This document shows positions 1-12,679 of a DNA stretch of 64,000 nt, piece after piece. The notes under the pieces were generated by a model that searched no databases, had not been told where the DNA came from, and saw nothing but the letters and a program-made list of their open reading frames with translations. This DNA is from Thermoproteota archaeon (GTDB lineage: Archaea; Korarchaeota; Korarchaeia; Korarchaeales; Korarchaeaceae): contig JAOZFH010000026.1 of assembly GCA_027491415.1 (NCBI GenBank), forward strand, positions 1-64,000. Reading direction: 5' to 3'. A program made the position numbers and the translations under genes. Every line of letters starts with the position of its first letter. Positions within the stretch are counted from its first letter, which is position 1.

Positions 1-7
1 CCGGGCG

Positions 8-2074
8 GTGGAGGCGCTCGCCGAGAGGGTCGGGATGGTCAGGGGCGCCGACGGCAGGTGGACCTTCGAGGGCAGGCCGGTCCTCCTGGTGGTGGCCTTC
101 AACGACGAAACCCTGCCGGACAGGGTCAGCCCAATGTACGACGAGTCCTCTAGGTGGATCCACAGGCTGGCCGTCTTCGACCCCCAAGACAGGGGGGAGG
201 ACCTGGCCGAGACCGTCAAGGGGCTTCTCAGGAGGCACGGCTTCGAGGTCAACGACTGGCGCGCCGGTTACGGCGGGCCCCTGAGGTCCACGCCCAGCTC
301 CCCGCACGTGCTCGTCCAGGCCATACCCCCCGGCTACCTGGTGGCCCCCGACTACATGTGGATGGGCTGGCTCTACTCCTACGACCCCCTCCCCTGGGCC
401 GACCGGGCCGACAGGTTCCTCAACCTCAGCAGGATATGGGAGCCCGTTTTCGGGCTGATCGAGGGCGTCGACTACGACGGGACCCCCTGCTCCGACCTCG
501 AGTGCACGGCCAGGCTCGCGGCTGACGTGGTGCTCAGGGGGGTGGAGGAGGGGTGGCCCAGGTGCTTCCTGTTCGAGGAGTACGACTACGTGCCGTACAG
601 CTCCGAGAGGGTGAGCTTCACCCACCTGGGGGTCGTCTACGGGCCCGTGGACCCGCTCGCCCTGATGACCGCCAGGACCCCCACGGGGACGCTCGCGGTC
701 GCCGTGCCGGAGGACGCCACCCTGTCGCCAGGCTCCCGGATCCCGGGCCTCTACCCCGGGTCGGGCCTCATACCCAACTTCGGGACCTTCGAGATGTCCC
801 AGTACGCCAAGTTCCCGCCGATCCACGAGTTCAGGGTGAGCCCCTTCTTCGCCTACAACGGCTGGGTGGGCTGGCTGGTGCACCAGCTCACGGTCTTCCA
901 GCTGGCCGTGGCCCACCCCACTCTCCTGGTCAGGGTCCCGATACCCGGGGTCGACTGGGCCGTGGCCAGGGGGTACAGGGGGCTGGGCTACACGGTGGAC
1001 GTCAGCTACCAGGGAGACCTGGGGATAAGCGCAAGGGAGGTCGAGGGGACCCTCGAGGCGCCCGTCGACCTGACGTCCTGGGACCCGATATCCCACTCTC
1101 CAATCGACGCCGAGGACTCCGGCCTGGCCAGCCTGGTGGAGATCAGGCTGCCCAACCTCAGCTACGGGTTCAGGAGCCTGGGGGAGGAGGACCTGATCTA
1201 CTGGATGCCTCAGCTCGTCGAGGAGGGCAGAGTCGTAATGGAGAATGAGAAACCTAGGTGGAGCCCCAGGGCCTGGACCCCGACCTGCTGGCTCTGGCTG
1301 CCGAGCGACAACGTTGCTGGGTGGAGCGTAGAAGGAGACAGGGTTCTTATAGGCCTCAAGGAGGCCGGGTGGCATAGAAGAGAACTTCTGGCGCACCTGC
1401 TCCCACCTCCCAATCCCGTGGCGGCCGCTTCCACGCTGGGCCAAGCCATGCCCATCTTCGGCCTGCCCTGGGAGCTTGAGGAGGCTGCGAGCAGAGTATC
1501 CGAGGGAGAGGACTACCCGACTGTAAACCTACTCGACCCGGAGTGGGCTCGGAAGATAGCCAGCGAACTCGCAAAGATGGCCAAGGAGAAATACGTCCCG
1601 CCCCAGCTGGAGGGCCTCGTCTCCCCAGGAGAGGCCGCCGAGCGCTACGTCGAGCTGGCCAGGAGGATACACGACCAGGGGCACGCCGTGATAAGCTGCG
1701 GGCCCTTCCGCGTGGAGGCCATCCTGGCCCAGGGTATCCTCATAGTCAGGAACGAGGAGTGGCCAGGCTGGAGCGGCCTGGAGGAGTGGCTGAGCATGGA
1801 CTTGGGGGACCTCTTCGCCGACTCGGGCTGGGAGCCCTGGGCCCCGTCCATACTGGAGGGCGCCCCCCGGCAAGGGGGATCCGCGCAACCCCGGCTCAAT
1901 CAGACCCCCTCCCCCGGTGGGGGGAATCGGACGCAGGCCGAGGGGACTACCCAGACACAGCCCGAGACGGGACCGAGGATTGGGGTGAGGTCCTGGCCGC
2001 TGCTGGCTGTCGGCCTGGCTGGCCTTGTCCTGAGCTTGGCCCTGGCCATCTACTGGGGCAGGAGAAGCGCGTAG
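8..2074 (+). CDS. ABC transporter extracellular solute-binding protein (family 5-like), 5' part probably outside window
   Basis: C-terminal GHAVISCGPF motif typical of archaeal peptide-binding proteins, then a G/T/Q/P-rich linker, a TM anchor and a basic tail; frame is open from the window start. Confidence 0.6.
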   Translation: MEALAERVGMVRGADGRWTFEGRPVLLVVAFNDETLPDRVSPMYDESSRWIHRLAVFDPQDRGEDLAETVKGLLRRHGFEVNDWRAGYGGPLRSTPSSPHVLVQAIPPGYLVAPDYMWMGWLYSYDPLPWADRADRFLNLSRIWEPVFGLIEGVDYDGTPCSDLECTARLAADVVLRGVEEGWPRCFLFEEYDYVPYSSERVSFTHLGVVYGPVDPLALMTARTPTGTLAVAVPEDATLSPGSRIPGLYPGSGLIPNFGTFEMSQYAKFPPIHEFRVSPFFAYNGWVGWLVHQLTVFQLAVAHPTLLVRVPIPGVDWAVARGYRGLGYTVDVSYQGDLGISAREVEGTLEAPVDLTSWDPISHSPIDAEDSGLASLVEIRLPNLSYGFRSLGEEDLIYWMPQLVEEGRVVMENEKPRWSPRAWTPTCWLWLPSDNVAGWSVEGDRVLIGLKEAGWHRRELLAHLLPPPNPVAAASTLGQAMPIFGLPWELEEAASRVSEGEDYPTVNLLDPEWARKIASELAKMAKEKYVPPQLEGLVSPGEAAERYVELARRIHDQGHAVISCGPFRVEAILAQGILIVRNEEWPGWSGLEEWLSMDLGDLFADSGWEPWAPSILEGAPRQGGSAQPRLNQTPSPGGGNRTQAEGTTQTQPETGPRIGVRSWPLLAVGLAGLVLSLALAIYWGRRSA

Positions 2075-2093
2075 AGAATCCTTCAGGTTAACG

Positions 2094-4642
2094 CTACTTT
2101 GGCGCTCCATACACCGTATCGGAGTCGGTGTCCCTGTCCCCCCACGTCGGGACCTCGCTGCTGCCGGCCAGGGCCTCCATCCACCCCTCATAGTACCCGC
2201 GCCAGTTCACGGGGATCTCCAGGTTCACGTAGACGCATGTCCCCGGCCCGCCTGGCCCCTCGTCCCTCCCGGTCCTTATCGGCTGTCCGGGCGGCGGCGC
2301 GAGCTTTCCGAAGACCCTGACCCACGTCGCCGGATCCTCGTCCCAGCCAGCGTTGTAGCCGTAGACCGTCACGTTGCGGTCGTTCTCCACCTGCGTTTTG
2401 GCGGACACGGGACCCGGCTCCACGAAGAAGCTCGTGGTGAGCCACGGGTACGTCACCGCCATCCAGTCCCCCGCGGGCTCCCCGTAGGGTATGTCGAAAC
2501 TCAGCGCGTACAGCGCGTAGACGTACGTGGCGCCGCCGTACGTCCTGCGCTCGAAGCCGACCGGCCCGGACGGCCTGCCCTCGGCGACCACCCGCGAGGG
2601 GCTCGCGACCCTCATGACCCAGTCCTCTGACTCCACCTCCCGCCTGCAGACGTAGCAGGCGTCCTCCTCCCCCTCCCCGGGGCCGTCGACGCAGTAGGCG
2701 AAGTAGTAGGTGCCAGACCCTCCCTTGTGCAGGTCCCCGGTGACCCGGTCGTACACGCACACCGGGCCGGTGGGGCAGTCGAAGTAGAAGTACTCGTCGC
2801 CCCACCCGTTCCTCCTCACGGTAACGCTCCTGGACTCGCTCCCGTAGTCCGTGACGACCCTCACCGAGTGGGTCCCGGGGCTGGTCGGGACGCTCAGGTC
2901 GCTGCCCCTGCCAACCCAGGACCCGTCCAGGTAGACGTCCCCCTCCAGGCTCTGGCCCGAGGAGCACCTCACGTGAACGTTTACGCCCTGGTCCCCCTGG
3001 CCCCCTCCGCCTCCACCCCCGCCCTGGCACCTGACGTAGAGCAGAGTCGAAGCCGAGGCTGAGGCCCCGTAGCCCATCGAGTCGTAGGCGTCCACCGCCA
3101 CGGAGCCCCTTAGCCAGTAGTCGCAGTCGGACATGCTGGCCACGCACCCGCTCCCGAAAGACCTCGACCAGGACCCTCCCGAGGGTTCGTCGGAGCCCGA
3201 GCCGCTCCTGCCGCTGGTTCCCGAGGCGCTCCAGGTCCACTCCGCCCTCTCAAGGTTCCCGTCGGGGTCGGAGGCGGCCATCGAGAAGGCCACGCACCTC
3301 CCCGGGCACCCGCACCCCAGCCAGCCGCTCTCGGCTCTGGCCGAGGCGGACACCACGGGGGCGTCGTTGAGCGTGAAGGTGTCGGAGTCCACCAGCTCCA
3401 GCCCTCCCCCCGTCACCGCCACCCCCACCACGGTCCACTCCCCTCCCAGGCCGTCCACGTAGACCTTGGAGGGATCCGTCTCCCTCACCGGGTTACCCTG
3501 GCGGTCCCTCTCGAGCTGCCTCCACATCACGACGCACTCCGCCGAGCACCTGTACCTCCTCAGCCAATCGCCGCCCGGGATCCTCTCGCAGTCGAAGTCC
3601 CTCAGCTCCACCTGCACGCTGTCCGGGTCCACGTCGGGGTTCCTCAGGAGCTCCTCCACGACGGGCTCGGCCCTCGAGCTGCACTCGCTCTCGAGCCTTG
3701 AGTTACACGAGTGGCAGTTCCCGGACCTGGCCCGGACGGTCCCGAGGCTCCGCTCCCTGTCCTCCCACCTGTAGAGGGATCCGGGGGGAGTCACCTCCGC
3801 GACTACGTCAGCCCAGCTCCCCGTGTGGTTCAGGGTGACCCCGTACTCCTTCCACAGGGACCCGGAGGGCGCGTAGATCCTCAGGGTGACGTTCCTCTCG
3901 CTGCTGTGGATCAAGACGTTGAAAGCCTGGAGCCTCCCCACCACGTCCTCCAGGACCTCGACCTCTATGAAGGGCCGCTCCCCTCCGGATTCAACGCCCA
4001 TCACCAGCGAGCTGTCGCTCCCACCGCTGGCCGACGCGGTGAGGTTTGAGGCGAGGCCCTCGCACGTCACGTTGACCGTCACGGTGACCGTCGCGGACTC
4101 CATGTACCCCAGCGTTACCCGGGAGGGGCTGACCGACGAGCCGTATCCGCAGGCCAGGTCCCCGGCGGACAGGTATATCACGCCGGCCTCCCCGGCGTTT
4201 ATCAGGGTGAACTGGACCGACCTGACCCCCCCGACCTCCGCGCTCTCGTTCTCAGGGACGAGCACGGGGATCGGTCCATGGATCGGGGGGCCGCCACGAC
4301 CGTAGTCGCGAGCCAGCTCGAGCCCTCCGTCACGTTGAAGCTTATGGAGACCACCGAGCCCCCGGCCGCGTCGCTGGCCGAGACCGAGTAGGTAAGCCCG
4401 AGCCCCACCGCCGCCAGCTCCTCCCTGGCCCTCTCCATCTCCGCCGAGCACATGGCCTCGGCCGTCCCGGCGTCCCATTGCGCCGCGACCTGGGCCACGG
4501 ACTCAGCCCTCCTGAGCACGGAGTCGAATGCCGAGTATACGTCCGTGGGGGCGGAGATCTCCACGGGCTGGGCGAGGAAGACGGCTCCAACTGCGAGGGC
4601 CAGCGCGACGAGGAATACGGCAGCCAGCGCGACCGAAGACAT
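2094..4642 (-). CDS. Large Cys-rich secreted/surface protein (Ig/PEGA-like domains), split by a frameshift at ~4285-4290
   Basis: ORF 4202..4642 supplies the signal peptide; ORF 2094..4478 supplies beta-rich domains, a poly-Gly linker and a PEGA-like VYLDGSWVG...PGTHSVRV segment; one extra C in the C6 run joins them. Confidence 0.6.
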
Positions 4643-4707
4643 TCCCGGCGGCGCCGCCCGGGTAGACGTGAAAAAGTGTTCGCGCAGCCCGCGGACGGGG
4701 AGAACTG

Positions 4708-5189
4708 TTAGCCGCTATCAGTTAACGCGCACGAGGAGAGCCGAGCAGCCAGAGCCCTCCCGCCTCCGAACGGGGGCTCTTCACTCGCGATGAGGGCCTC
4801 ACCCCACACTAAGAAAGCAACCGCGAAACAGTAGTCGTAGACCCACCGCCGGTCAGGCCATGCAGGCGCAGGAGTCAGATAGACGGCAGCGGCGGCGATG
4901 GCCATGAGGAGAGAGTAGCTGCTGTCTTGGGGGTTGCTCCCCTGAAGACGGCGACGGCGACCTGATAGAAGAGCAAGGTAGCGAGGGCGAGGAGATCGTT
5001 GCCAAAGATCAATGAGGCTCCTTCGACCCTCTCCGCGCCGGAGATTAGCCAGGTTGGTGGGAAGAAGTAGGTAACAAAGAGAAAGGCGAGGAGCCACGCC
5101 TCTGGGGGGCCCAGTCTCGAGATCCAGCTTCTACTTTGTCGGCCTCTCTCAGACTTCACCAGCGCTCGCAGTGACACCTGTAGCTCCAC
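4708..5189 (-). pseudogene. Frameshifted, truncated paralog of the adjacent membrane protein 5149..5781
   Basis: LLFYQVAVAVFR (4875..5189 frame) and WVYDYCFAVAFLVWGEALI (4708..5097 frame) align with LLSYQVVVALRR and WLIAYYFPLCLLAWAEWLI of the neighbour. Confidence 0.6.
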
Positions 5190-5781
5190 CCCTCAACGCA
5201 GCATTAGGGGCCTCGACGTACCCCCACACCCGTACGGATGCTCCCCTCAGCAGCAGAACCGAATCCATCGCGACGACCGACAGCGAGGCCAATCCTAGGG
5301 CGGATGTGGTGATCGCGAGGTAGGAGGGGACGGCAGCCTCGGCTAGGCCCAGAGCCGCATGATAGAGCAGAGGTCCCCCGATGAGTGCGAAGGACAGTGA
5401 GACCAGCGGGATGAGGGTGAACCTCCTACCCTCCCGGATCAGCCACTCGGCCCAGGCCAATAGGCACAGTGGAAAGTAGTAGGCGATGAGCCAGTAAAAT
5501 CCCACGCACGCCGCTGGGCCGGAGAGGAGGGCCAAGAAAAGCAGGACCCCCGTGAGGAGCGGGTGTATCAGGCTCCAACCACTCAACCTCCTCCTCAGGG
5601 CGACGACAACCTGGTAGGAGAGCAGGACGGCTAGTATAACTGAAGGTGGGTTCAGTCTCGCGGAAATCTGAGACACTAGCCCCAGCAGGCTTCGGCCTTG
5701 GACGCAGTCGAGGCCCAAGAGAACCCCACCTAGGAGAAGTTCAAAGGGGCCAAACCTCTTTCTTCTCAATTCACTCCCCAC
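5149..5781 (-). CDS. Multi-pass membrane protein, candidate immunity/accessory protein
   Basis: About 6 hydrophobic segments; lies directly downstream of the Cys-rich precursor on the same strand. Confidence 0.6.
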   Translation of the reverse strand: MGSELRRKRFGPFELLLGGVLLGLDCVQGRSLLGLVSQISARLNPPSVILAVLLSYQVVVALRRRLSGWSLIHPLLTGVLLFLALLSGPAACVGFYWLIAYYFPLCLLAWAEWLIREGRRFTLIPLVSLSFALIGGPLLYHAALGLAEAAVPSYLAITTSALGLASLSVVAMDSVLLLRGASVRVWGYVEAPNAALRGGATGVTASAGEV

Positions 5782-5797
5782 CCGCCAATTATGGTGA

Positions 5798-6670
5798 TCA
5801 CCAATGAGAACAATGGCATCGGTAGCTCCAACCGCCTGTGCAACAATACGAGCAGGAGCTAAGGCCAGCCGCGCACGTCATGCATCCTCCACAGGCTGCC
5901 CAATTCCCCAGTAAGCAAGCCAAACACACGATAGAGCATCCTATGTTTCTAGCCCCGCACCTTATCAAGCACGAGTCGTCCCAGTCGGTGCAGTACCTGC
6001 TGCAAACCCCGTAGTACCCCGGCGGGCAGTAGGGGTCGCAGTCCTCGTCCCTCTGGCAGGATATGTAGTCCGGCCTATATACGTTGGTGGGTCCCACGAC
6101 CGACTTGGTGAGAACCGGAGCGGGCGGACGCTGAGGATCCTGAAGGAGCCGAGCCAATCCCGGCAAGAGGATTAGCCTTCCCTCGTAGATGTAGGCCAGG
6201 TGGAGGAGCTCACCCCCCTCGGGCTCCCAGAGCAGCACCTCCCCTCTCCTGGTGGGGTTCTCTTCGCCCTCTATGGTCACGCCCACTATGGCAATGGGGA
6301 ACTCGGGGATTCCTCCCTTGGCCAAGGCGTGCCTGACGCCCGGGGCTCCGTAAGTCGCTATCAGCAGCCGCAACTCCCCGGAGGGAGACATGAACCTGAT
6401 CATCGAGGCATTGAGCAGCGTTGGAAGTCCAATGGCGCTGGTTAACATCTCCAGTTCTGAGGACAGACCGGCTCCAAGCAGCCCCGGAAGTTCGGTAGAC
6501 GAGACTTCAAATCCTCCGAGGTACCTCAGGTCGCCTCCGCCCCCCGCCCTGACCGCGCAACAGCATCCGCCACCCGTCTGGGTGGGCGAGGCTAACGCCG
6601 AACTGGGGGTGAGGATCATAGCCACGAGAGACGACAGGATCACGAGGCTGATGAGCTTTTTGCTCATCAT
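5798..6670 (-). CDS. Secreted precursor with C-terminal Cys-rich domain (halocin C8-like architecture)
   Basis: Sec-type signal peptide ending ...SSALA; 290 aa; 18 Cys in the last ~86 aa; G-rich RBS upstream. Confidence 0.6.
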   Translation of the reverse strand: MMSKKLISLVILSSLVAMILTPSSALASPTQTGGGCCCAVRAGGGGDLRYLGGFEVSSTELPGLLGAGLSSELEMLTSAIGLPTLLNASMIRFMSPSGELRLLIATYGAPGVRHALAKGGIPEFPIAIVGVTIEGEENPTRRGEVLLWEPEGGELLHLAYIYEGRLILLPGLARLLQDPQRPPAPVLTKSVVGPTNVYRPDYISCQRDEDCDPYCPPGYYGVCSRYCTDWDDSCLIRCGARNIGCSIVCLACLLGNWAACGGCMTCAAGLSSCSYCCTGGWSYRCHCSHW

Positions 6671-6705
6671 CAGCCCCCCATTAAAGTGAGTTATTTTTCC
6701 TAACT

Positions 6706-6759
6706 ACACCTGTAATATGCATTTTAATATAAATGTATTTGTTACAGGTGTTATATAAC
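6706..6759 (-). promoter_or_regulatory. AT-rich promoter (TATA-like TTTATATTAAAA) flanked by a 10-bp inverted repeat, candidate operator
   Basis: ACACCTGTAA 6706-6715 and TTACAGGTGT 6742-6751; palindrome GTTATATAAC 6750-6759. Confidence 0.55.
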
Positions 6760-7262
6760 GCTATATTTGCTAAATCAACCGATTGATCACCATCTTCCCC
6801 CTTAAACGTGGATTATTCGAAATAGGGGTCCCTCGAGCTGGAACGAACCGGCGGGCGCGGAGACACGGTTGGGCAGGCCACAACTGAGAGCGAAGGGCCC
6901 CCATGTTAGGTGAGGGGGAGCGGAGCGTAGGGGAACTCCCTGATCTAGGCGAGTGAGGAGGCTGAGCTGTCTTATTGAGAGCGCGCAGCCTCTGGTAGGG
7001 AACCGGGGACATTGGCCTTACTCCAAGCGCCGGGTTGGGCCTGAGCGACTGGGGAACCCTACCTCCGCGTCAACTCGCTGGCTGGGGTCTCCAGGGTGGG
7101 GCCTCTCTGAGTTCGGGAATTGACAGCAGGGCCGACTGAGGGATAAGGAACTCTCCGAATAGTAGGTATGGTTAAAGTCGTTGCGAAGGTGCCGACCGGC
7201 CTCTCTTCCCGCGGACCGCGGTGACGTGGTATAAGGAGGTGGCCGGAGAAGATGCTGAACTG

Positions 7263-7589
7263 TCAGGAGTACTCCCGCCACGTGTACTTGCACTTGACGC
7301 AGGTGTAGATCCTGGTGGGGGGCTCGTCCGCCGACCTGGTCTGCTCTATCCTCAGGTAGGCCTCGGTGTGCCCGCACTTCGGGCACACGGCCTTGACCTT
7401 GGGGAGGGAGATGAGTTCCTCTGGGTTCTCTATCACGACGACCTTGTTCTCGGGGCTGGCGGCGACCCTCCTGGTTATGTTGAGGGCCCTCCCCTCGGTC
7501 CCCTCGTACCCGCACCTAGGGCACTTGAACACGACCTTGCCGTCCTCGACCTTGGGAGACATCAGGGCCCCGCATTTCGGGCAGATCAA
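7263..7589 (-). CDS. tfs: Transcription factor S (TFS/RpoM)
   Basis: Two Zn ribbons and the QTRSADEP acidic hairpin. Confidence 0.93.
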   Translation of the reverse strand: MICPKCGALMSPKVEDGKVVFKCPRCGYEGTEGRALNITRRVAASPENKVVVIENPEELISLPKVKAVCPKCGHTEAYLRIEQTRSADEPPTRIYTCVKCKYTWREYS

Positions 7590-7686
7590 TCCTATCCCTC
7601 GGTTCGGTTCTCCGGGCGTGGCGATTAATCTAGTTTGCGCGGGCGACGGGCCAACCGTTAATTAGGTCCCGGGAAGGGGTGGTCCG

Positions 7687-8193
7687 ATGAGCCACCGCCG
7701 CGTCTCAGTCCCCAGAGTTCCGCTCAGACTTCCGTCGAGGCACAGGAGGAGGCGGGTGGCCGTCATAGTGGACGGCCCCAACATGCTCAGGAAGGAGCTG
7801 GGTGTGGACCTCGAGGAAATCTCGAAGGTGGCCTCTGATCTGGGAAACGTCAGGGTTAAGGTGGTCGTGCTGGACAGAAAGGCTCCAGAGAAGCTTGTGG
7901 AGGCCGTTATGAATGCGGGCTACAAGGCGCTGATCTCCCCGGGCAAGCCGGAGGTCGACTTCACGATCGCCGCCATGGACACGATACACGACGACAAGAT
8001 AGACGCCCTGGCCCTCGCAACGAGGTCGGCGGCCTACCTCCCGCTGGTTTACCGGGCGAAGGAGGCTGGAAAGGAGGTTGCGGTGATCGGGGCCGAGCCG
8101 GGCTTCAGCGTGGCGCTCAGGAAGGCGGCCGACGCCTCATTCACCGTGGGATCTCCTTCTCCTTCCTACGAGGGCCCTGAGGAAGAAGAGTGA
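7687..8193 (+). CDS. NYN/PIN domain protein (TIGR00288-like)
   Basis: IVDGPNMLRKE, VDFTIAAMD and GAEPGFSVAL motifs. Confidence 0.85.
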   Translation: MSHRRVSVPRVPLRLPSRHRRRRVAVIVDGPNMLRKELGVDLEEISKVASDLGNVRVKVVVLDRKAPEKLVEAVMNAGYKALISPGKPEVDFTIAAMDTIHDDKIDALALATRSAAYLPLVYRAKEAGKEVAVIGAEPGFSVALRKAADASFTVGSPSPSYEGPEEEE

Positions 8194-9234
8194 GGCTATG
8201 GAGAACAGGAGGGCAGCCGCGAGCCCCAGGGCGAGCACCACCGCCCCCACCCTGCCGAGCAGGTACTCGCCGGCATAGTAGGCCATCAGCCAGGCAGAGA
8301 AGGAGACCGCCACCGCCAGCAGCTTCTCCACGTAGTCCCCCCGCTTCGTGGCGTACGACTCTATCGCGCTGCCGAGGAAGGCCGCTGACGTGAATAGGAA
8401 GAAGAGGTGGGACGTGTTCCTCAGCACGGTGCCGATCACCACGCCCGTCGGGTTGCTTCCTATCATGCTCGAGGCCGTCCTGTAGGCCTGAAAGGCGCTG
8501 ACGGCTATGCCAGTGAGCCCGAAGAACAGCGAGAAGATGCCGGTGGCTCCGCCGAAGTACTTGACGACCCTCACCAGTTTGCTGGTTATCGAGAAGCCCT
8601 TCTCCATCAGGAGGACCCCGAGGAAGAGTATGAACCCGGTGGCCAGGTACCTCTGGAGGTTCAGCAGGGAGAGTATGCCAGCCAGCGCCAGGAGCGCGCC
8701 GGGTATGCCCAAGGCGTAGGCCCTGGCCTCCGGGCTCTCGAGCAGCCTCTCTATGTACCTCCTTATGAGGAGGTACGTCTCCTCCAGCTGCGGGCTCTGC
8801 TGAACCACAATGCGCCTGACGCTTATCGTCGGCACGAACTTGAGGAGGAGGGGGATAACCCTCTCGTCGTCGACGCCGTCAGAGACCAGGATGGCGTGAT
8901 CCGGCCGGAACGTGGAGGTCACCTCGGCCATCTGCCTGATGATCTCCTGGTCCGCGATCAGCTCGCTGGTGTGGTGCCCGGTTATGGTGGCCACCAGCAC
9001 CTCGGCCTCCGGCAGCTCCCGCTTTACCTCTTCGGCCACCTTGACGGCCCCGAATATGGCGTTCGCGTCGGCCTCCTGAGGGTCGGCGAGCGCGAGCCTC
9101 GTCGCGGCCTCGGTGTTGGCCTCGACGCCGACCACAGGGCCCCTCAGGCCGGTCTTCAGGCCGAGATCGTCATCTCGGTCGACGCACAAGATGAGCACTC
9201 GTCGTGGAGTTCCCTCGGGGCCCCTGGTGACCAA
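8137..9234 (-). CDS. DUF373 family membrane protein
   Basis: LILCVDRDDDLG...DPQEADANA, LVSDGVDDE and VVQQS motifs, then TM helices. Confidence 0.88.
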   Translation of the reverse strand: MVTRGPEGTPRRVLILCVDRDDDLGLKTGLRGPVVGVEANTEAATRLALADPQEADANAIFGAVKVAEEVKRELPEAEVLVATITGHHTSELIADQEIIRQMAEVTSTFRPDHAILVSDGVDDERVIPLLLKFVPTISVRRIVVQQSPQLEETYLLIRRYIERLLESPEARAYALGIPGALLALAGILSLLNLQRYLATGFILFLGVLLMEKGFSITSKLVRVVKYFGGATGIFSLFFGLTGIAVSAFQAYRTASSMIGSNPTGVVIGTVLRNTSHLFFLFTSAAFLGSAIESYATKRGDYVEKLLAVAVSFSAWLMAYYAGEYLLGRVGAVVLALGLAAALLFSIASLFFLRALVGRRRRSHGE

Positions 9235-9288
9235 TCCTATCGCGTGCCCCCGGGCGCCCGGGAATTAAAAATGTGGGTTGAGGCGAGG

Positions 9289-10203
9289 CTAGCTGGAGGA
9301 CGCCGGGCTCCCCTCGAGGAGGCCCGCCTCCATGAGGGCCCTGAGCTCCTCCAGTGTCAGCTTCTCGCCGGCCTTGTACTTCTCCAGGGCCTCCTGGGCG
9401 AGCCTGGTCTTGATCTGCTCCTCCGTCAGCCTGGCGGCGGCCTGCATGTCCTCGTAGGCCTTCTTGAGGAACTCCCTAGTCTGCGTTATCTGCTGGAACA
9501 GCTCGTCCATCCGGGCCTTCATCTCGTCAACCTTGCCGCTCTTCTCCTCTATCTCCTTGCTGAGCTCGTCTATCTGAGGCCTTATCTCGTCGAGCTCCCT
9601 GATCAGCTCCGAGATCTCGCCGTTGATCTCCGAGATCTTAGCCTTGAGCTCCTTGATCTTCTCCCCGGTGTCCCTGATGAAGAACCTCCACCTTTCCGCC
9701 TCGGCCATGATCTCGATGTACCTCCTCTTGAGCTTCTTGGCCTCCATGAGAGTCTGGAGCTGGGCCTCCAAGTGGCTTATCCTCACCACCAGGTCCCTCT
9801 CCGCGTCCCTCGAGAGGGGCTGGGTCTCGATCCGCCTCTCCAGGGCCGCTATCCTCCTCCTCAGTACCCTCTCAGGGACACCGACCTCCGCCATGAGGCT
9901 CTCGTACCTGTTCTTTATCTCGGTAGCCTCCTTCTTGGCCTTTCGGTACTCCTCGATGACCTTCCTCCTCTCCTCAAAGAGCTTCTCGACCTCCTCCCTG
10001 ATCTTCTTTCTCTCCTCGATCAGCTCCCTTATCTTGGCCCTCTTGCTTCGCACCTGCTCGATGAGCTCCCTCCTCTTCTCCCTGAGGCCCTTCAGGTCCT
10101 CGATGATGGCCCTCCTCTCGTCCCGGATGGAGAGAAGCTTCGCTCTAAGGTCTTCAACCCTACGCCGGAGATCGTCAAGATCCTGCGCCTGTGCTGCTCC
10201 CAT
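9289..10203 (-). CDS. Archaeal coiled-coil protein (COG1340-like)
   Basis: Long heptad repeats, IETQPLSRDAERDLV, C-terminal GEKLTLEEL; start taken at ATG 10203. Confidence 0.8.
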   Translation of the reverse strand: MGAAQAQDLDDLRRRVEDLRAKLLSIRDERRAIIEDLKGLREKRRELIEQVRSKRAKIRELIEERKKIREEVEKLFEERRKVIEEYRKAKKEATEIKNRYESLMAEVGVPERVLRRRIAALERRIETQPLSRDAERDLVVRISHLEAQLQTLMEAKKLKRRYIEIMAEAERWRFFIRDTGEKIKELKAKISEINGEISELIRELDEIRPQIDELSKEIEEKSGKVDEMKARMDELFQQITQTREFLKKAYEDMQAAARLTEEQIKTRLAQEALEKYKAGEKLTLEELRALMEAGLLEGSPASSS

Positions 10204-10315
10204 GGGAGCTCCTCCTCTCTCAGCTGTTGCGTTGCCTGAAAGATCGCTCGCCACCAAGCGTGCTCGGATCGGGCCGGTGTTAGGAGATTAAAAAGGTTCG
10301 CCGCCGGGGGCCGAC

Positions 10316-10525
10316 TCACACCGACACGAGGATTATGTCGGCGCAGGCCCTTATGGCTGAGTAGGGGATCGTCCTCCTCTCCTTGCCCTTCTCGTCCAGC
10401 GCCACGATTATGGCGGCGAGACGACCCCCGGCGTCGTCGAACACTATGTCGTCCACCGTGCCTATGAACTTGCCGTCGGTGGTGTAGACCTCCAAGTCGT
10501 ATAGCTCCGACACCCTCCTCGCCAA
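10316..10525 (-). CDS. PRC-barrel domain protein
   Basis: VYTTDGKFIGTVDDIVFD...IPYSAIRACADIILV. Confidence 0.88.
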   Translation of the reverse strand: MARRVSELYDLEVYTTDGKFIGTVDDIVFDDAGGRLAAIIVALDEKGKERRTIPYSAIRACADIILVSV

Positions 10526-10529
10526 GGCA

Positions 10530-11225
10530 TCACCCCAGTATGACCCTGGCGTCCACCACTTTAAGGCCGCTCGGGTAAGCCATAACGGGGTTGAGGTCCA
10601 TCTCCTTTATCTCGGGGTTCTCGACCCCTATCTGGCCCACCTTCACCAGCGCGTCTACGAGAGCCTTCTTGTCGACGGGCTCCATTCCCCTATAGCCCTC
10701 CAGGAGCTTTCTGCCCTTTATCTCGCTGATCATCTCCTCTGCGTCCCTCTCGGTCAGCGGCGCGACCCTGAAAGACACGTCCCTGAAGACCTCCACGAAC
10801 ACGCCTCCGAGACCGAACATGACGGTCGGGCCGAACTGCGGGTCCTTGATGAGGCCTATTATCACCTCGACGCCCGCCGGGGCGAACTCCTGGATGAGGA
10901 CACCCACGATCCTGGCATTCGGGACCTTCGACTTGACGGACTCTATTATCTCCCTGTAGGCCCTCCTGACCTCCTCCTCCGTCTTCAGGTTCACCTTCAC
11001 GCCGCCCACGTCGCTCTTGTGCAGGACGTCTGGTGAGACTATCTTGAGGACGACCGGGAGGCCGATCTCCCTGGCGAACTGGACGGCCTCCTCCTCGGTC
11101 TTGGCGACCTTCACCCTGGTCACGGGGATACCGTAGTCGGCGATGAGGGCCTTGGCCTCTGGCTCGAGTAGGACCTTCCTGCCCTCAGAGATGGCTCCCT
11201 GGATTATCTCCCTCCCCTTAGGCAT
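10530..11225 (-). CDS. acdB: ADP-forming acetate/acyl-CoA ligase beta subunit (ATP-grasp)
   Basis: PVVLKIVSPDVLHKSDVGGV, DPQFGP, EMDLNP, VVDAR. Confidence 0.92.
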   Translation of the reverse strand: MPKGREIIQGAISEGRKVLLEPEAKALIADYGIPVTRVKVAKTEEEAVQFAREIGLPVVLKIVSPDVLHKSDVGGVKVNLKTEEEVRRAYREIIESVKSKVPNARIVGVLIQEFAPAGVEVIIGLIKDPQFGPTVMFGLGGVFVEVFRDVSFRVAPLTERDAEEMISEIKGRKLLEGYRGMEPVDKKALVDALVKVGQIGVENPEIKEMDLNPVMAYPSGLKVVDARVILG

Positions 11226-11285
11226 GGACGCACGTCACCGCGACAAGCTTTGGCCCAATCCGTTAAAAGATTATCCCACGGAGTC

Positions 11286-12563
11286 TCAGCGCCTCCTGGA
11301 CCTCCTGAGAATCCTCTCTATGGACTTAGAGACTCTCCTAGCCTTTTTAGCCTCCTTCGGGGGGGCCTTGCTGAGTTTTCTCTTCGAGGGCTCCTCGCGC
11401 GCTCCTCCCGCCTCCAGCACCTCCTTGGGTATGTAGTACATGCCCGCCGCGTCCTTGGAGAGGTATCCGGCGGCGACTAGAGTCTCCAACCTCCTGTACT
11501 CCTCGTCCACCGGAACCTCCGTCGCGAGCGCCAGCTTCTCGAGGGTCGTTGGACCGCCGCCGAAGTCCCTCACCAGCGTTTCAACCTCCAGCCTGTACCT
11601 CTCCGGCACCCTGTCTAGGAAGTCCAAGAGGGGCTTCTCGGGCTCCATCACGTCGTCCACAATGACCTCGGTGACGGTAGTCCTCCTCAAGGCCACGGCG
11701 GCCTCCAGGGCCTGGGAGAGTATCTCCATCAGCCTCTTTGGCACCCCACGTGCGTACCTGTTGGCGGTCTCCACCGCCTCGGGCGTCAACGGATCGAGGT
11801 CGAACCTCGGCTCCCTCACCCTGAAGGCCGACACCCTCTTGCCCACTATCCGGATGGCCTCGTCGTCGGTCAGCGGCTGGAGCTCCACCTTGTCGTGCAT
11901 CCTCGATAATAGGGCGGAGTGCCTCTTCCTCAGGGCGTTGAAGGCGTCAGGGCTCATTGTCATGACGACCATTATCCCCTCTGGCATCACGGAAACGAGC
12001 TCCCTGATGCTCTCGAAGAAGAAGAAGGACCACCTGTCCCCGCTCAGGAGCATGTTGTGGGCGTCGTCAAGGAGGAGAGCGACTGGCCTTATTGGGTCGA
12101 GGTAGTCCACCAGAGCCTCCCCGACGCTGGCGGGGGATCTCCTCAGCCTCTCCAGCTCCTCCTCGCTCAGCTCGGATATCCCGAGGACTAGCTTCTTCAG
12201 CGCCTTCATCATGCCCCTGCTCCGCTCGTAAGTGAAGCTCAGGAGGTCGTCTATGGCGTCGGGCCCCTCCAGCGGGCTGACCTCGTAGAGTATGTACTCC
12301 CCCTCGGACTCCCAGAAGTCGTGGGCCAGGACGTTGAGCCGCGTCGTCCGGCCCATCCCGGGCTCCCCCACCACCGCTATGAACGCCGACCCGGTGCCAG
12401 CCAGCGTGTCGCTCGCCATCGCTTGGAGGCTCGAGTCCTGAGAGAGGGGGACGAACATCTGCCTCGTCAGTTCAGGGTCAAAGTCTGCTAGGGGCGTGAA
12501 CGGGTTCCTGGAGAGGCCGAGGATCACTTCGAGGCTCCTCTCCCTTCCAGCGAGGCCCGCCAA
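11286..12563 (-). CDS. AAA+/P-loop ATPase with C-terminal winged helix
   Basis: N-terminal NPF, Walker A variant GEPGMGRTT, Walker B LLLDDAH, lid GVPKRL, C-terminal HTH-like region and basic tail. Confidence 0.7.
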   Translation of the reverse strand: MAGLAGRERSLEVILGLSRNPFTPLADFDPELTRQMFVPLSQDSSLQAMASDTLAGTGSAFIAVVGEPGMGRTTRLNVLAHDFWESEGEYILYEVSPLEGPDAIDDLLSFTYERSRGMMKALKKLVLGISELSEEELERLRRSPASVGEALVDYLDPIRPVALLLDDAHNMLLSGDRWSFFFFESIRELVSVMPEGIMVVMTMSPDAFNALRKRHSALLSRMHDKVELQPLTDDEAIRIVGKRVSAFRVREPRFDLDPLTPEAVETANRYARGVPKRLMEILSQALEAAVALRRTTVTEVIVDDVMEPEKPLLDFLDRVPERYRLEVETLVRDFGGGPTTLEKLALATEVPVDEEYRRLETLVAAGYLSKDAAGMYYIPKEVLEAGGAREEPSKRKLSKAPPKEAKKARRVSKSIERILRRSRRR

Positions 12564-12679
12564 TCAATCCACCGCGGAAGGGGCGCCCGGGCCTATATAA
12601 TAGGCCCGGGTCTCCCGGCGGCGGGGGCATTCTTTTTTAACGCAGGCGCGCGGGCTGGCCTTGGAAGGGTGAAAAGGCG

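Follow-up and report, generated by a model that had tools for sequence, protein, structure and literature searches.

What kind of system is encoded at positions 4708-6770 of the DNA considered here, a stretch of 64,000 nucleotides from contig JAOZFH010000026.1 of the genome of an uncultivated Korarchaeal archaeon from a hot spring (hereafter the window), where a gene for a secreted protein with a Cys-crowded C-terminus stands beside membrane genes? An earlier note on this stretch had proposed a halocin C8-like precursor and, more broadly, an undescribed disulfide-rich antimicrobial and immunity system. Comparison of the locus with its homologs points to a polymorphic secreted-toxin and membrane-immunity cassette that is specific to Korarchaeota, archaeocin-like, and without detectable relatives, and judged from the sequences this is probably what the locus is. 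Toxicity, immunity, a membrane target, disulfide formation and proteolytic release are what we infer for its products. The broader proposal of the note is favored by the exchange of C-terminal modules, by membrane genes that stand without a toxin gene and by strain-specific presence, while its link to halocin C8 found no support.

The locus and its intact cassette

Of two cassettes in the window, one (5149-6670) is intact and the other (4708-5203) is a wreck. The intact cassette consists of a gene for a Cys-rich precursor and a downstream gene for a membrane protein, memB, with the following parts.

5798..6670, minus strand: Cys-rich secreted precursor gene, called as an open reading frame (ORF) of 290 amino acids (aa) plus stop; putative polymorphic toxin
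6590..6670, minus strand: signal peptide of the general secretory (Sec) type, residues 1-27, with a KK n-region, a hydrophobic core and ALA before SP
6131..6532, minus strand: conserved N-terminal alpha/beta domain, residues 47-180, from an AlphaFold2 (AF2) model; kept across genera
6059..6130, minus strand: Pro-rich linker, residues 181-204, predicted to be disordered
5801..6058, minus strand: Cys-rich C-terminal domain, residues 205-290, with 18 Cys, from the Cys count and an alignment
5801..5965, minus strand: variable C-terminal module, residues 236-290, after a W-x3-C-L motif; exchanged together with the downstream gene
5149..5781, minus strand: multi-pass membrane gene memB, 210 aa, by ORF call; putative cognate immunity gene

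The precursor begins with MMSKKLISLVILSSLVAMILTPSSALA followed by SP, which reads as a Sec-type signal without a twin arginine (a reading of the sequence and not the output of a predictor). The hydrophobic N-terminal segment covers residues 1-28, and the window protein has no membrane anchor. There are 21 Cys in total, with a CCC triplet at C36-C38 and 18 within residues 205-290, and in these respects, as in the 290-aa ORF with its Sec-type signal and the 18 Cys in the last 86 aa, the description in the earlier note is borne out by the sequence. Twelve Cys columns of the C-terminal domain are invariant and four nearly so in an alignment of 11 sequences, and the C-terminal domains of the Korarchaeal family contain 18-25 Cys. 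When the 1.78-Mb genome was scanned over its 2103 ORFs with 120 aa or more (overall Cys fraction 0.85%), the precursor and its paralog on contig C46 reached the highest number of Cys per 86-aa span, 18, followed by spans with 16, 14 and 13. The linker has the lowest identity to homologs from genus g3 (12-22%). The memB protein has at least four hydrophobic segments, is 68% identical to the memB adjoining the C46 paralog, and has no Pfam or NCBIfam match.

C-terminal modules and the downstream membrane gene

Wherever the sequence beyond a family member can be read, one or two genes for multi-pass membrane proteins of about 170-226 aa come next on that strand. These loci are the window, C46, six loci in genomes of genus g3 and nine of nine metagenome loci (for L197, the first 39 codons only). 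That homologs would keep a membrane gene alongside was thus confirmed in every such copy, and two distant members, on contig C1 of the same genome (with a 133-aa membrane gene) and in genome G037, are paired as well. The partners were considered as one conserved membrane family, which was rejected because an hhalign comparison of the types from genus g1 with those from g3 gave a probability of 0.2%. The types are memA, memB and memC in g1 and Y, X, Z, U, W and V in g3; within g3 the relationship is clear for Y, Z, U, W and V but only marginal for X.

Related loci differ by abrupt exchange of the C-terminus and of the gene that follows it. L198 and L203 share 99.1% DNA identity up to codon ~167 of the Cys-rich gene, past which blastn finds no similarity (E<=1e-5) in either the last ~60 codons or the entire downstream gene. 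For L197 and L200, 95.6% identity extends as far as codon ~169, where it breaks off. The window and the L195 ortholog are 83% identical up to codon ~239, with memB downstream in the former and memC in the latter; their similarity ends at window position 5955 and resumes for the last 66 nucleotides only. All three junctions lie within four codons of the conserved W-x3-C-L motif, which opens the helical hairpin of the predicted structure. In three independent locus pairs, a fixed junction joins the conserved N-terminal part to unrelated C-terminal modules.

The modules also co-vary with the membrane genes. Across the 45 pairs formed by 10 loci (L202, which equals G033, and the frameshifted L005 and L195 were dropped), the correlation with the membrane gene was 0.92 for the C-terminal module and 0.57 for the N-terminal part. 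With the N-terminal part held, the partial correlation between C-terminal module and membrane gene was 0.87, a value attained by 1 of 5000 permutations, and with the C-terminal module held, that between N-terminal part and membrane gene was 0.18, attained by 922 of 5000. As an example, L199/L198 and L203 have N-terminal parts that are 97% identical, C-terminal modules that are 39% identical and membrane proteins that are 23% identical. A similar C-terminal module with a dissimilar membrane gene was found in none of the 45 pairs.

Decayed cassettes and orphan membrane genes

The wreck of the second cassette lies immediately downstream of, and partly over, the end of memB.

5156..5203, minus strand: what is left of a second Cys-rich gene, the terminal 15 codons CCVEGWSYRCHCERW with the stop, out of frame over the end of memB
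4708..5177, minus strand: degraded memC-type membrane gene, with a frameshift near 4926-4932 and truncated at about residue 148 of 226

Homology of memB to the C46 memB stops at '...WGYV' (window position 5215), and the final ~20 memB codons are read from the remnant of the second Cys-rich gene in another frame. The remnant was matched in a search of the genome (E 1.7e-4) and by tblastn to the tail of the C46 paralog (71% over 14 aa, E 4e-7), and its DNA aligns with the 3' end of the L195 Cys-rich gene. With the L195 memC as a tblastn query (overall E 3.9e-27), residues 1-81 match at 4932-5177 with 52% identity and residues 83-148 match at 4729-4926 with 45% identity in a different frame. At the DNA level, window positions 4820-5206 are 69.5% identical over 394 nucleotides to L195, from the last ~50 nucleotides of the Cys-rich gene into memC. 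Where two paralogous membrane genes had been described, the one at 5149-5781 stands as an intact multi-pass ORF, but the one at 4708-5097 is frameshifted, truncated and of another type, memC.

Elsewhere in the phylum, membrane genes remain where the Cys-rich gene does not. A profile of the g3-type membrane proteins matches six of 43 genomes, and two of these, G013 and G017 (each 99% complete), contain two g3-type membrane genes apiece but lack the Cys-rich gene. One of these orphans is 98-99% identical to the gene adjoining the intact putative toxin gene of L201. The Cys-rich ORF at its site has been lost to a 561-bp deletion (L200 513-1073). What remains there is the upstream region, ~37 codons and the final 5 codons, together with an intact membrane ORF (97-98% DNA identity). 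In L200, L201, L202, L203, G033 and G030 this site has a Cys-rich gene and a Y-type gene. The second orphan is 100% identical over the available 39 residues to the gene downstream of the L197 toxin variant. It lies downstream of a gene that we take, from its translation, to be nuoN-like, and at its site in G033 there are frameshifted fragments of X-type and Z-like genes. Among the 24 proteins of the Y-type cluster is one of Korarchaeum cryptofilum OPF8.

Decay is seen in other copies of the cassette as well. In the G030 copy the N-terminus is missing, there are changes from Cys to Arg, and the membrane gene is interrupted by a TGA. Frameshifted copies are found in G031 (one copy), L195 and L196, and the protein P0001 diverges past residue ~257. 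Decayed fragments of membrane genes are present in G031 and G033.

Two further features were seen at the g3 sites, where the names nuoN-like, ZIP-like and HEPN-like are our reading of the translations.

L200 20-280; L018 2247-2507 (minus strand); L021 1-1368: nuoN-like pieces, by reading of the translation
L006 2533-3281; L007 1-797; L018 2446-3197; L202 3448-4196: HEPN/nucleotidyltransferase-like pair

At the site between the ZIP-like and HEPN-like genes, a fragment of the 3' end of a nuoN-like gene lies directly upstream of the cassette, and a full nuoN-like gene elsewhere is followed by an orphan Z-type membrane gene. This arrangement suggests that the cassette may have been copied between two g3 sites with a piece of nuoN. 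A small pair of genes, presumably HEPN and minimal nucleotidyltransferase on the basis of their motifs, flanks the g3 cassette wherever the site is seen.

Range of the family

A search of 5.8 billion proteins with the precursor as a single sequence returned three matches, and HMMER against 1.84 billion representatives returned one, the near-identical P0001. A profile of seven sequences found nine clusters among the 5.8 billion proteins, of which the named ones are proteins of Korarchaeota or of Korarchaeum metagenome-assembled genomes. In the 43 genomes of the phylum, a profile of 11 sequences (A3) matched in five, with two copies each in the window's genome (G000) and G031 and one each in G030, G032 and G033. 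The window's genus is represented by four more genomes, and the family is absent from all of them. A scan of genome contigs with the A1 alignment gave 61 pattern matches, none of which was confirmed. On these sequence sets the family appears very small and is found only in Korarchaeota.

A scan of the same genome for Cys density led to the distant member on contig C1 (L204 4432-5382, minus strand), a protein of 316 aa whose C-terminal 86 residues include 16 Cys. It matched A3 in hhalign with a probability of 90% (E 1.5e-6) and has one relative, in G037 of genus g4; as a pair, the two matched the family profile at 97.4% (E 1e-11, 171 columns). By sequence reading, both have RR-F-L/I-S motifs resembling those of twin-arginine translocation (Tat) signals (KRREFLS in C1) after two extra N-terminal hydrophobic helices; an RR motif is absent from the window protein and from its homologs in g1 and g3. 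The membrane ORF that follows the C1 gene is at L204 4077-4478 (minus strand). A CRISPR-like repeat array, recognized from a repeated translated motif, is located at L204 7038-8675, about 1.6 kb from the C1 member.

Comparison with halocin C8

Three haloarchaeal halocins are the archaeocins described in molecular detail in the portion of the literature covered by the main text of one recent paper, which gives the role of halocin C8 as inter-strain antagonism and models its precursor, ProC8, with TIGR04449 (halocin_C8_dom) and PF22862 (Hac8_like_N) (10.64898/2026.07.27.741052). The layout of the Korarchaeal protein is similar to that of ProC8, with an export signal, an N-terminal domain of ~110-180 aa, a linker and a hydrophobic, Cys-rich domain of ~76-95 aa at the C-terminus. 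On this point the earlier note was right, including the similar length: the window protein has 290 aa with a signal, N-terminal domain, linker and 86-aa C-terminal domain, and the 283-aa ProC8 of Natrinema was used as a control.

The proposed link between the families found no support in profile searches that work on positive controls. TIGR04449 (cut-off 24 bits) had no match at E<=10 in six frames of the whole genome and none in five family proteins, NCBIfam had none for the window protein, C1, P0004 and P0009 (E<=1 to 10), and PF22862 was absent from the window protein, four homologs and C1, for which there was no Pfam match at E<=0.1 to 10. In the Natrinema control, PF22862 scored 164 bits and TIGR04449 scored 57.6 bits (E 1.9e-15, domain residues 214-283). 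PF22862 is a test of low power, as among four genuine C8 precursors it gave one strong match, one below cut-off and none for the other two. TIGR04449 was found at 28 places in 23 of 201 sampled haloarchaeal genomes, from which 18 precursors were aligned after 10 near-duplicate or long rows were dropped. Against this set, hhalign gave 0.2% for the C-terminal domain, 2.1% for the N-terminal region (E 0.023) and 3.2% for the whole protein. When the Tat-type members were added, only the signal peptide aligned to the halocin set (39%, 46 columns), and a superfamily profile reached 9.7%. Fifteen of the 18 haloarchaeal C8 domains contain 10 Cys, compared with the 18-25 of the Korarchaeal domains, and the RR motif of a Tat export signal is absent from the window protein. 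In the ESM Atlas, the whole protein scored 0.88 (172/256 shared features) to a cluster named 'Putative immunity protein/bacteriocin domain-containing protein', in which PF27906 (Gpos_C8-like) is present in 17% of the proteins. This is a lead only, and it vanished with the C-terminal part alone, for which the best score was 0.76. Because TIGR04449, PF22862 and hhalign were all negative, the likeness to halocin C8 appears to be one of layout and not of demonstrable ancestry.

Predicted structure

An AF2 model of the precursor based on the 11-sequence alignment had a mean predicted local distance difference test score (pLDDT) of 61.9 and a predicted template modelling score of 0.45; an earlier run with four sequences was poor (pLDDT 54.5). 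Residues 47-180, the N-terminal domain, have block pLDDT values of 64-85. The C-terminal domain is modeled as a helical hairpin of helices 232-253 and 257-268 with short strands flanking it (pLDDT 74-84), in which Cys are spaced i, i+3 or i+4, with C234, C238, C245, C249 and C252 opposite C260, C263 and C266. Residues 181-220 are predicted to be disordered (pLDDT <50), which hints at a possible cleavage region.

With this model, Foldseek found no match in the PDB at E<=0.001, a BFVD structure search likewise returned none at E<=0.001, and a wide VIA-align search had a best Z of 6.2 with none at Z>=8. The A3 profile against solved structures gave only rows at E 0.74-1.1, to Wsv112 and a thrombomodulin EGF domain. 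That these searches found no match is not proof of a new fold. A predicted complex of memB with residues 196-290 of the precursor scored 0.01 against a mark of 0.32, in a run made without controls, and this score is taken as evidence in neither direction on binding.

Genomic setting

The cassette lies in a region that differs in composition and gene content from that of relatives. The GC content of the block is 0.592 against a mean of 0.628 (standard deviation 0.022) for the whole window, and 4.7% of equal-sized blocks are as low. The earlier description of the block as less GC-rich than its flanks holds for the left flank (0.681), but the right flank is at only 0.619. A clearer signal comes from GC at third codon positions (GC3), which is 0.725 and 0.692 in the two cassette genes and 0.87-0.92 in three neighboring genes. 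Genome G008 is 95.6% identical over window positions 7245-12566 and has no cassette; synteny stops at 7245, just past the TFS gene, with other genes beyond. G010 shows the same pattern, with 86.7% identity. The 490 bp between the cassette promoter and the TFS gene (6771-7262) contain only an implausible 80-aa ORF. Positions 6671-6961 align at 83% identity with the upstream region of the cassette in L195 and are therefore counted as part of the mobile unit, and the boundary of the island appears to lie between 6961 and 7245. Fragments resembling OrfB_IS605 beside the C46 copy (E 5.7e-4) fall under the Pfam cut-off.

Two short elements stand upstream of the Cys-rich gene.

6722..6733, minus strand: TATA-like box TTTATATTAAAA, ~52-63 nucleotides upstream of the ATG; predicted promoter
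6673-6678: G-run, immediately before the start codon of the Cys-rich gene

Comparable A/T boxes and G-runs are found upstream of the C46 paralog and the L195 ortholog, and the box at 6722-6733 may serve as a promoter. It is flanked by a perfect 10-nucleotide inverted repeat, ACACCTGTAA at 6706-6715 and TTACAGGTGT at 6742-6751. The repeat was considered as an operator, which we do not claim because it is not conserved in L195, where it is degraded upstream of the ortholog. Rfam and tRNA scans of the window found two tRNAs only, both distant from the locus, and nothing in 6671-7262.

Downstream of the cassette, a 794-aa protein (2094-4478, minus strand) has weak Ig-like and BiPBP_C matches below cut-off, and a 146-aa protein (4202-4642, minus strand) has a pilin-like hydrophobic N-terminus and a weak match to DUF7261; as called, these two ORFs overlap by ~280 nucleotides. 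Among relatives, the 794-aa protein has a 180-aa fragment in G008 and a match with 60% identity in G011, and the same query found none in G009 and G010. A fragment with 32% identity to its C-terminus lies beside the C46 cassette (G000:C46:1191-1757, minus strand). Also within window positions 1-7245, where synteny with G008 is missing, lies a 688-aa ORF (8-2074, plus strand) that has a hydrophobic anchor at its C-terminus and matches nothing in Pfam or NCBIfam.

A proposed mechanism and its alternatives

In the proposed mechanism, the 290-aa precursor would be exported via Sec, with the conserved N-terminal alpha/beta domain as a carrier, pro-domain or receptor-binding part and the variable C-terminal module as the active, specificity-determining hairpin, probably stapled by disulfides. 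The target of the module would probably be the envelope or membrane of competing Korarchaeota; action there is suggested both by partners that span the membrane several times and by a module in the form of an amphipathic, Cys-laddered hairpin. The downstream multi-pass membrane protein would shield the producer from its own module. In evolution, module and immunity gene would be swapped as a unit, the toxin may be lost while immunity is kept, and decaying copies would pile up.

Several observations weigh against reading the locus as a toxin and immunity cassette. No part of the cassette matches a known toxin, immunity, bacteriocin or defence family, and the three cassette proteins have no match in Pfam, NCBIfam, PHROGs or PADLOC. 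The pair has no conserved neighbor that is a protease, transporter or regulator, and the AF2 model is of moderate quality. The partners are of several unrelated types, those of C1 and G037 matching neither g1 nor g3, and memX and memC are linked to their own groups only marginally. Co-variation is the weaker evidence because adjacency lets one recombination tract replace both genes, and the 10 loci compared are few and mutually related. The right-hand breakpoints of the swaps lie beyond the contig ends, and the deletion in G013 and G017 amounts to one event because the breakpoints are shared. A stronger point than co-variation appears to be the repeated junction at one motif.

The same variable module, co-varying neighbor and strain-specific presence would also be expected of a polymorphic pair for self/non-self recognition or adhesion, in which a Cys-rich ligand and a membrane receptor serve kin discrimination and nothing is killed. 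The two extra N-terminal helices in C1 and G037 could tether those proteins to the membrane of the producer like a surface marker. The window protein, however, has a cleavable-looking signal and no anchor, and it is hard to see what purpose a receptor would serve once its ligand is gone, whereas G013 and G017 have retained intact membrane genes after deletion of the ligand ORF. A separate locus holds more membrane genes without a toxin, which is a typical pattern for immunity genes, and a recognition pair is, in our judgment, unlikely. Improbable, and less likely than a recognition pair, is a very distant member of the halocin C8 family, with a HalI-like N-terminal domain, a C-terminus released as a peptide and the membrane genes as accessories. 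The layout is alike, with 290 aa in the window protein, 283 in Natrinema and 258-345 for most of the 18 precursors; the RR motifs of C1 and G037 are Tat-like, and the ESM Atlas cluster provides its lead. Genuine C8 precursors often miss PF22862, so their N-terminal domain evolves fast. Against common descent stand the negative profile and hhalign results, the restriction of the match to the signal peptide once Tat-type members are added, the excess of Cys and the loss of the ESM Atlas lead with the C-terminus alone.

An extracellular metal-binding or redox protein, for instance for thiophilic metals, with a membrane transporter or assembly partner would account for 18-25 conserved Cys per ~90 residues. 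One g3 locus adjoins a membrane protein that we take to be a ZIP-type metal transporter, and a Y-type protein (P0014 cluster) has the UniRef label 'DUF1404 domain-containing'. That label was not reproduced, as PF07185 matched none of 10 membrane proteins (E<=10) and was found in none of the four genomes G000, G013, G031 and G033 at E<=1. No Cys or His column is conserved in the membrane partners, which are of several unrelated types, a pattern ill-suited to a conserved role in transport or assembly, and Sec delivers a protein unfolded and free of cofactor. A metal-binding role would also give no rationale for replacing the C-terminal module together with its partner, or for keeping the partner alone, and we regard it as slightly more doubtful than a distant halocin. 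Cargo of a virus or mobile element, such as a superinfection-exclusion or envelope protein, might be expected in a variable island with atypical GC3, with OrfB_IS605-like fragments at C46 and a CRISPR-like array near C1. There was, however, no PHROGs match and no BFVD match at E<=0.001, the ORFs listed around the loci include no viral gene such as one for an integrase or a capsid, and the g3 cassettes are at fixed chromosomal sites between housekeeping genes; of the explanations considered, this one seems barely plausible.

Relation to known systems and significance

A toxin and immunity cassette of this form would most closely recall the polymorphic toxins of bacteria, which include the CdiA-CT/CdiI pairs of contact-dependent growth inhibition (CDI), Rhs proteins, and the cytotoxic domains of colicins and pyocins with their immunity genes. 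As in those systems, a conserved N-terminal part meets unrelated C-terminal modules at a sharp motif junction, each module has a downstream immunity gene or candidate, and there are orphan immunity genes, decayed modules and strain-specific presence. The Korarchaeal proteins differ from these bacterial toxins in being small (222-316 aa) with Sec or Tat-like export, and the precursor has a signal peptide only, with no Pfam or NCBIfam domain for delivery or trafficking (type V, VI or VII secretion system, or Rhs/YD). Their module is a 55-64-aa Cys-laddered hairpin as opposed to an enzyme domain, and the immunity candidates are multi-pass membrane proteins as opposed to small cytosolic binders.

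Membrane immunity proteins are known from pore-forming colicins and class II bacteriocins. The resemblance to pore-forming colicins, a C-terminal helical hairpin with an adjoining small multi-pass protector, extends to how the system may work only; there is no Pfam or NCBIfam homology, and the Korarchaeal hairpin is amphipathic, Cys-rich and has charged residues. The predicted helix-turn-helix with Cys on facing sides, from a moderate model, is also reminiscent of the alpha-hairpinin and twin Cx3C families, but the Korarchaeal hairpin has many more Cys, sits in a larger secreted precursor and belongs to an archaeal lineage.

Among archaeocins, which also include the sulfolobicins of Sulfolobales, halocin C8 is nearest in layout. 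The differences are a Tat signal in ProC8 and a Sec signal in the window protein, 10 as opposed to 18-25 Cys, and no profile similarity. In the main text of the paper cited above, immunity of ProC8 resides in the N-terminal part of the same precursor and its neighbors are halR, halU and ABC transporter genes, which contrasts with the separate, co-varying membrane gene in Korarchaeota; C-terminal modular swapping is not mentioned there (10.64898/2026.07.27.741052). The string 'Korarchae' has no occurrence in that main text, and the supplement may hold a Korarchaeal entry (10.64898/2026.07.27.741052).

Beyond passing mentions in reviews, no literature was found that links Korarchaeota to archaeocins, toxins or immunity proteins. 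We know of no report of antagonism among Korarchaeota, which to our knowledge have never been in pure culture. Systems of this kind are known; what is new, as far as we have searched, is the proteins themselves, the lineage and the minimal Sec-only format.

A more far-reaching proposal, which we regard as evenly balanced, is that Korarchaeota use a previously unrecognized class of archaeocin for strain warfare, in which a Sec-exported precursor carries a disulfide-laddered hairpin as a plug-in toxin that is swapped with a membrane immunity protein, and in which toxin-less 'cheaters', including the Korarchaeum cryptofilum lineage, keep immunity genes. It would be the first such system in deep-branching, uncultivated thermophilic archaea, with folds that have no known relatives. 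The question is testable because cognate and non-cognate pairs are already defined in sequence (Y, X, Z, U, W and V; memA, memB and memC). If true, the cassette would provide a new toxin fold and several new immunity families, a natural marker for strain competition in hot-spring communities, and a compact, heat-stable, disulfide-rich scaffold with exchangeable specificity. It would also mean that the evolutionary logic of polymorphic toxins works in deep-branching archaea without a specialized secretion machine.

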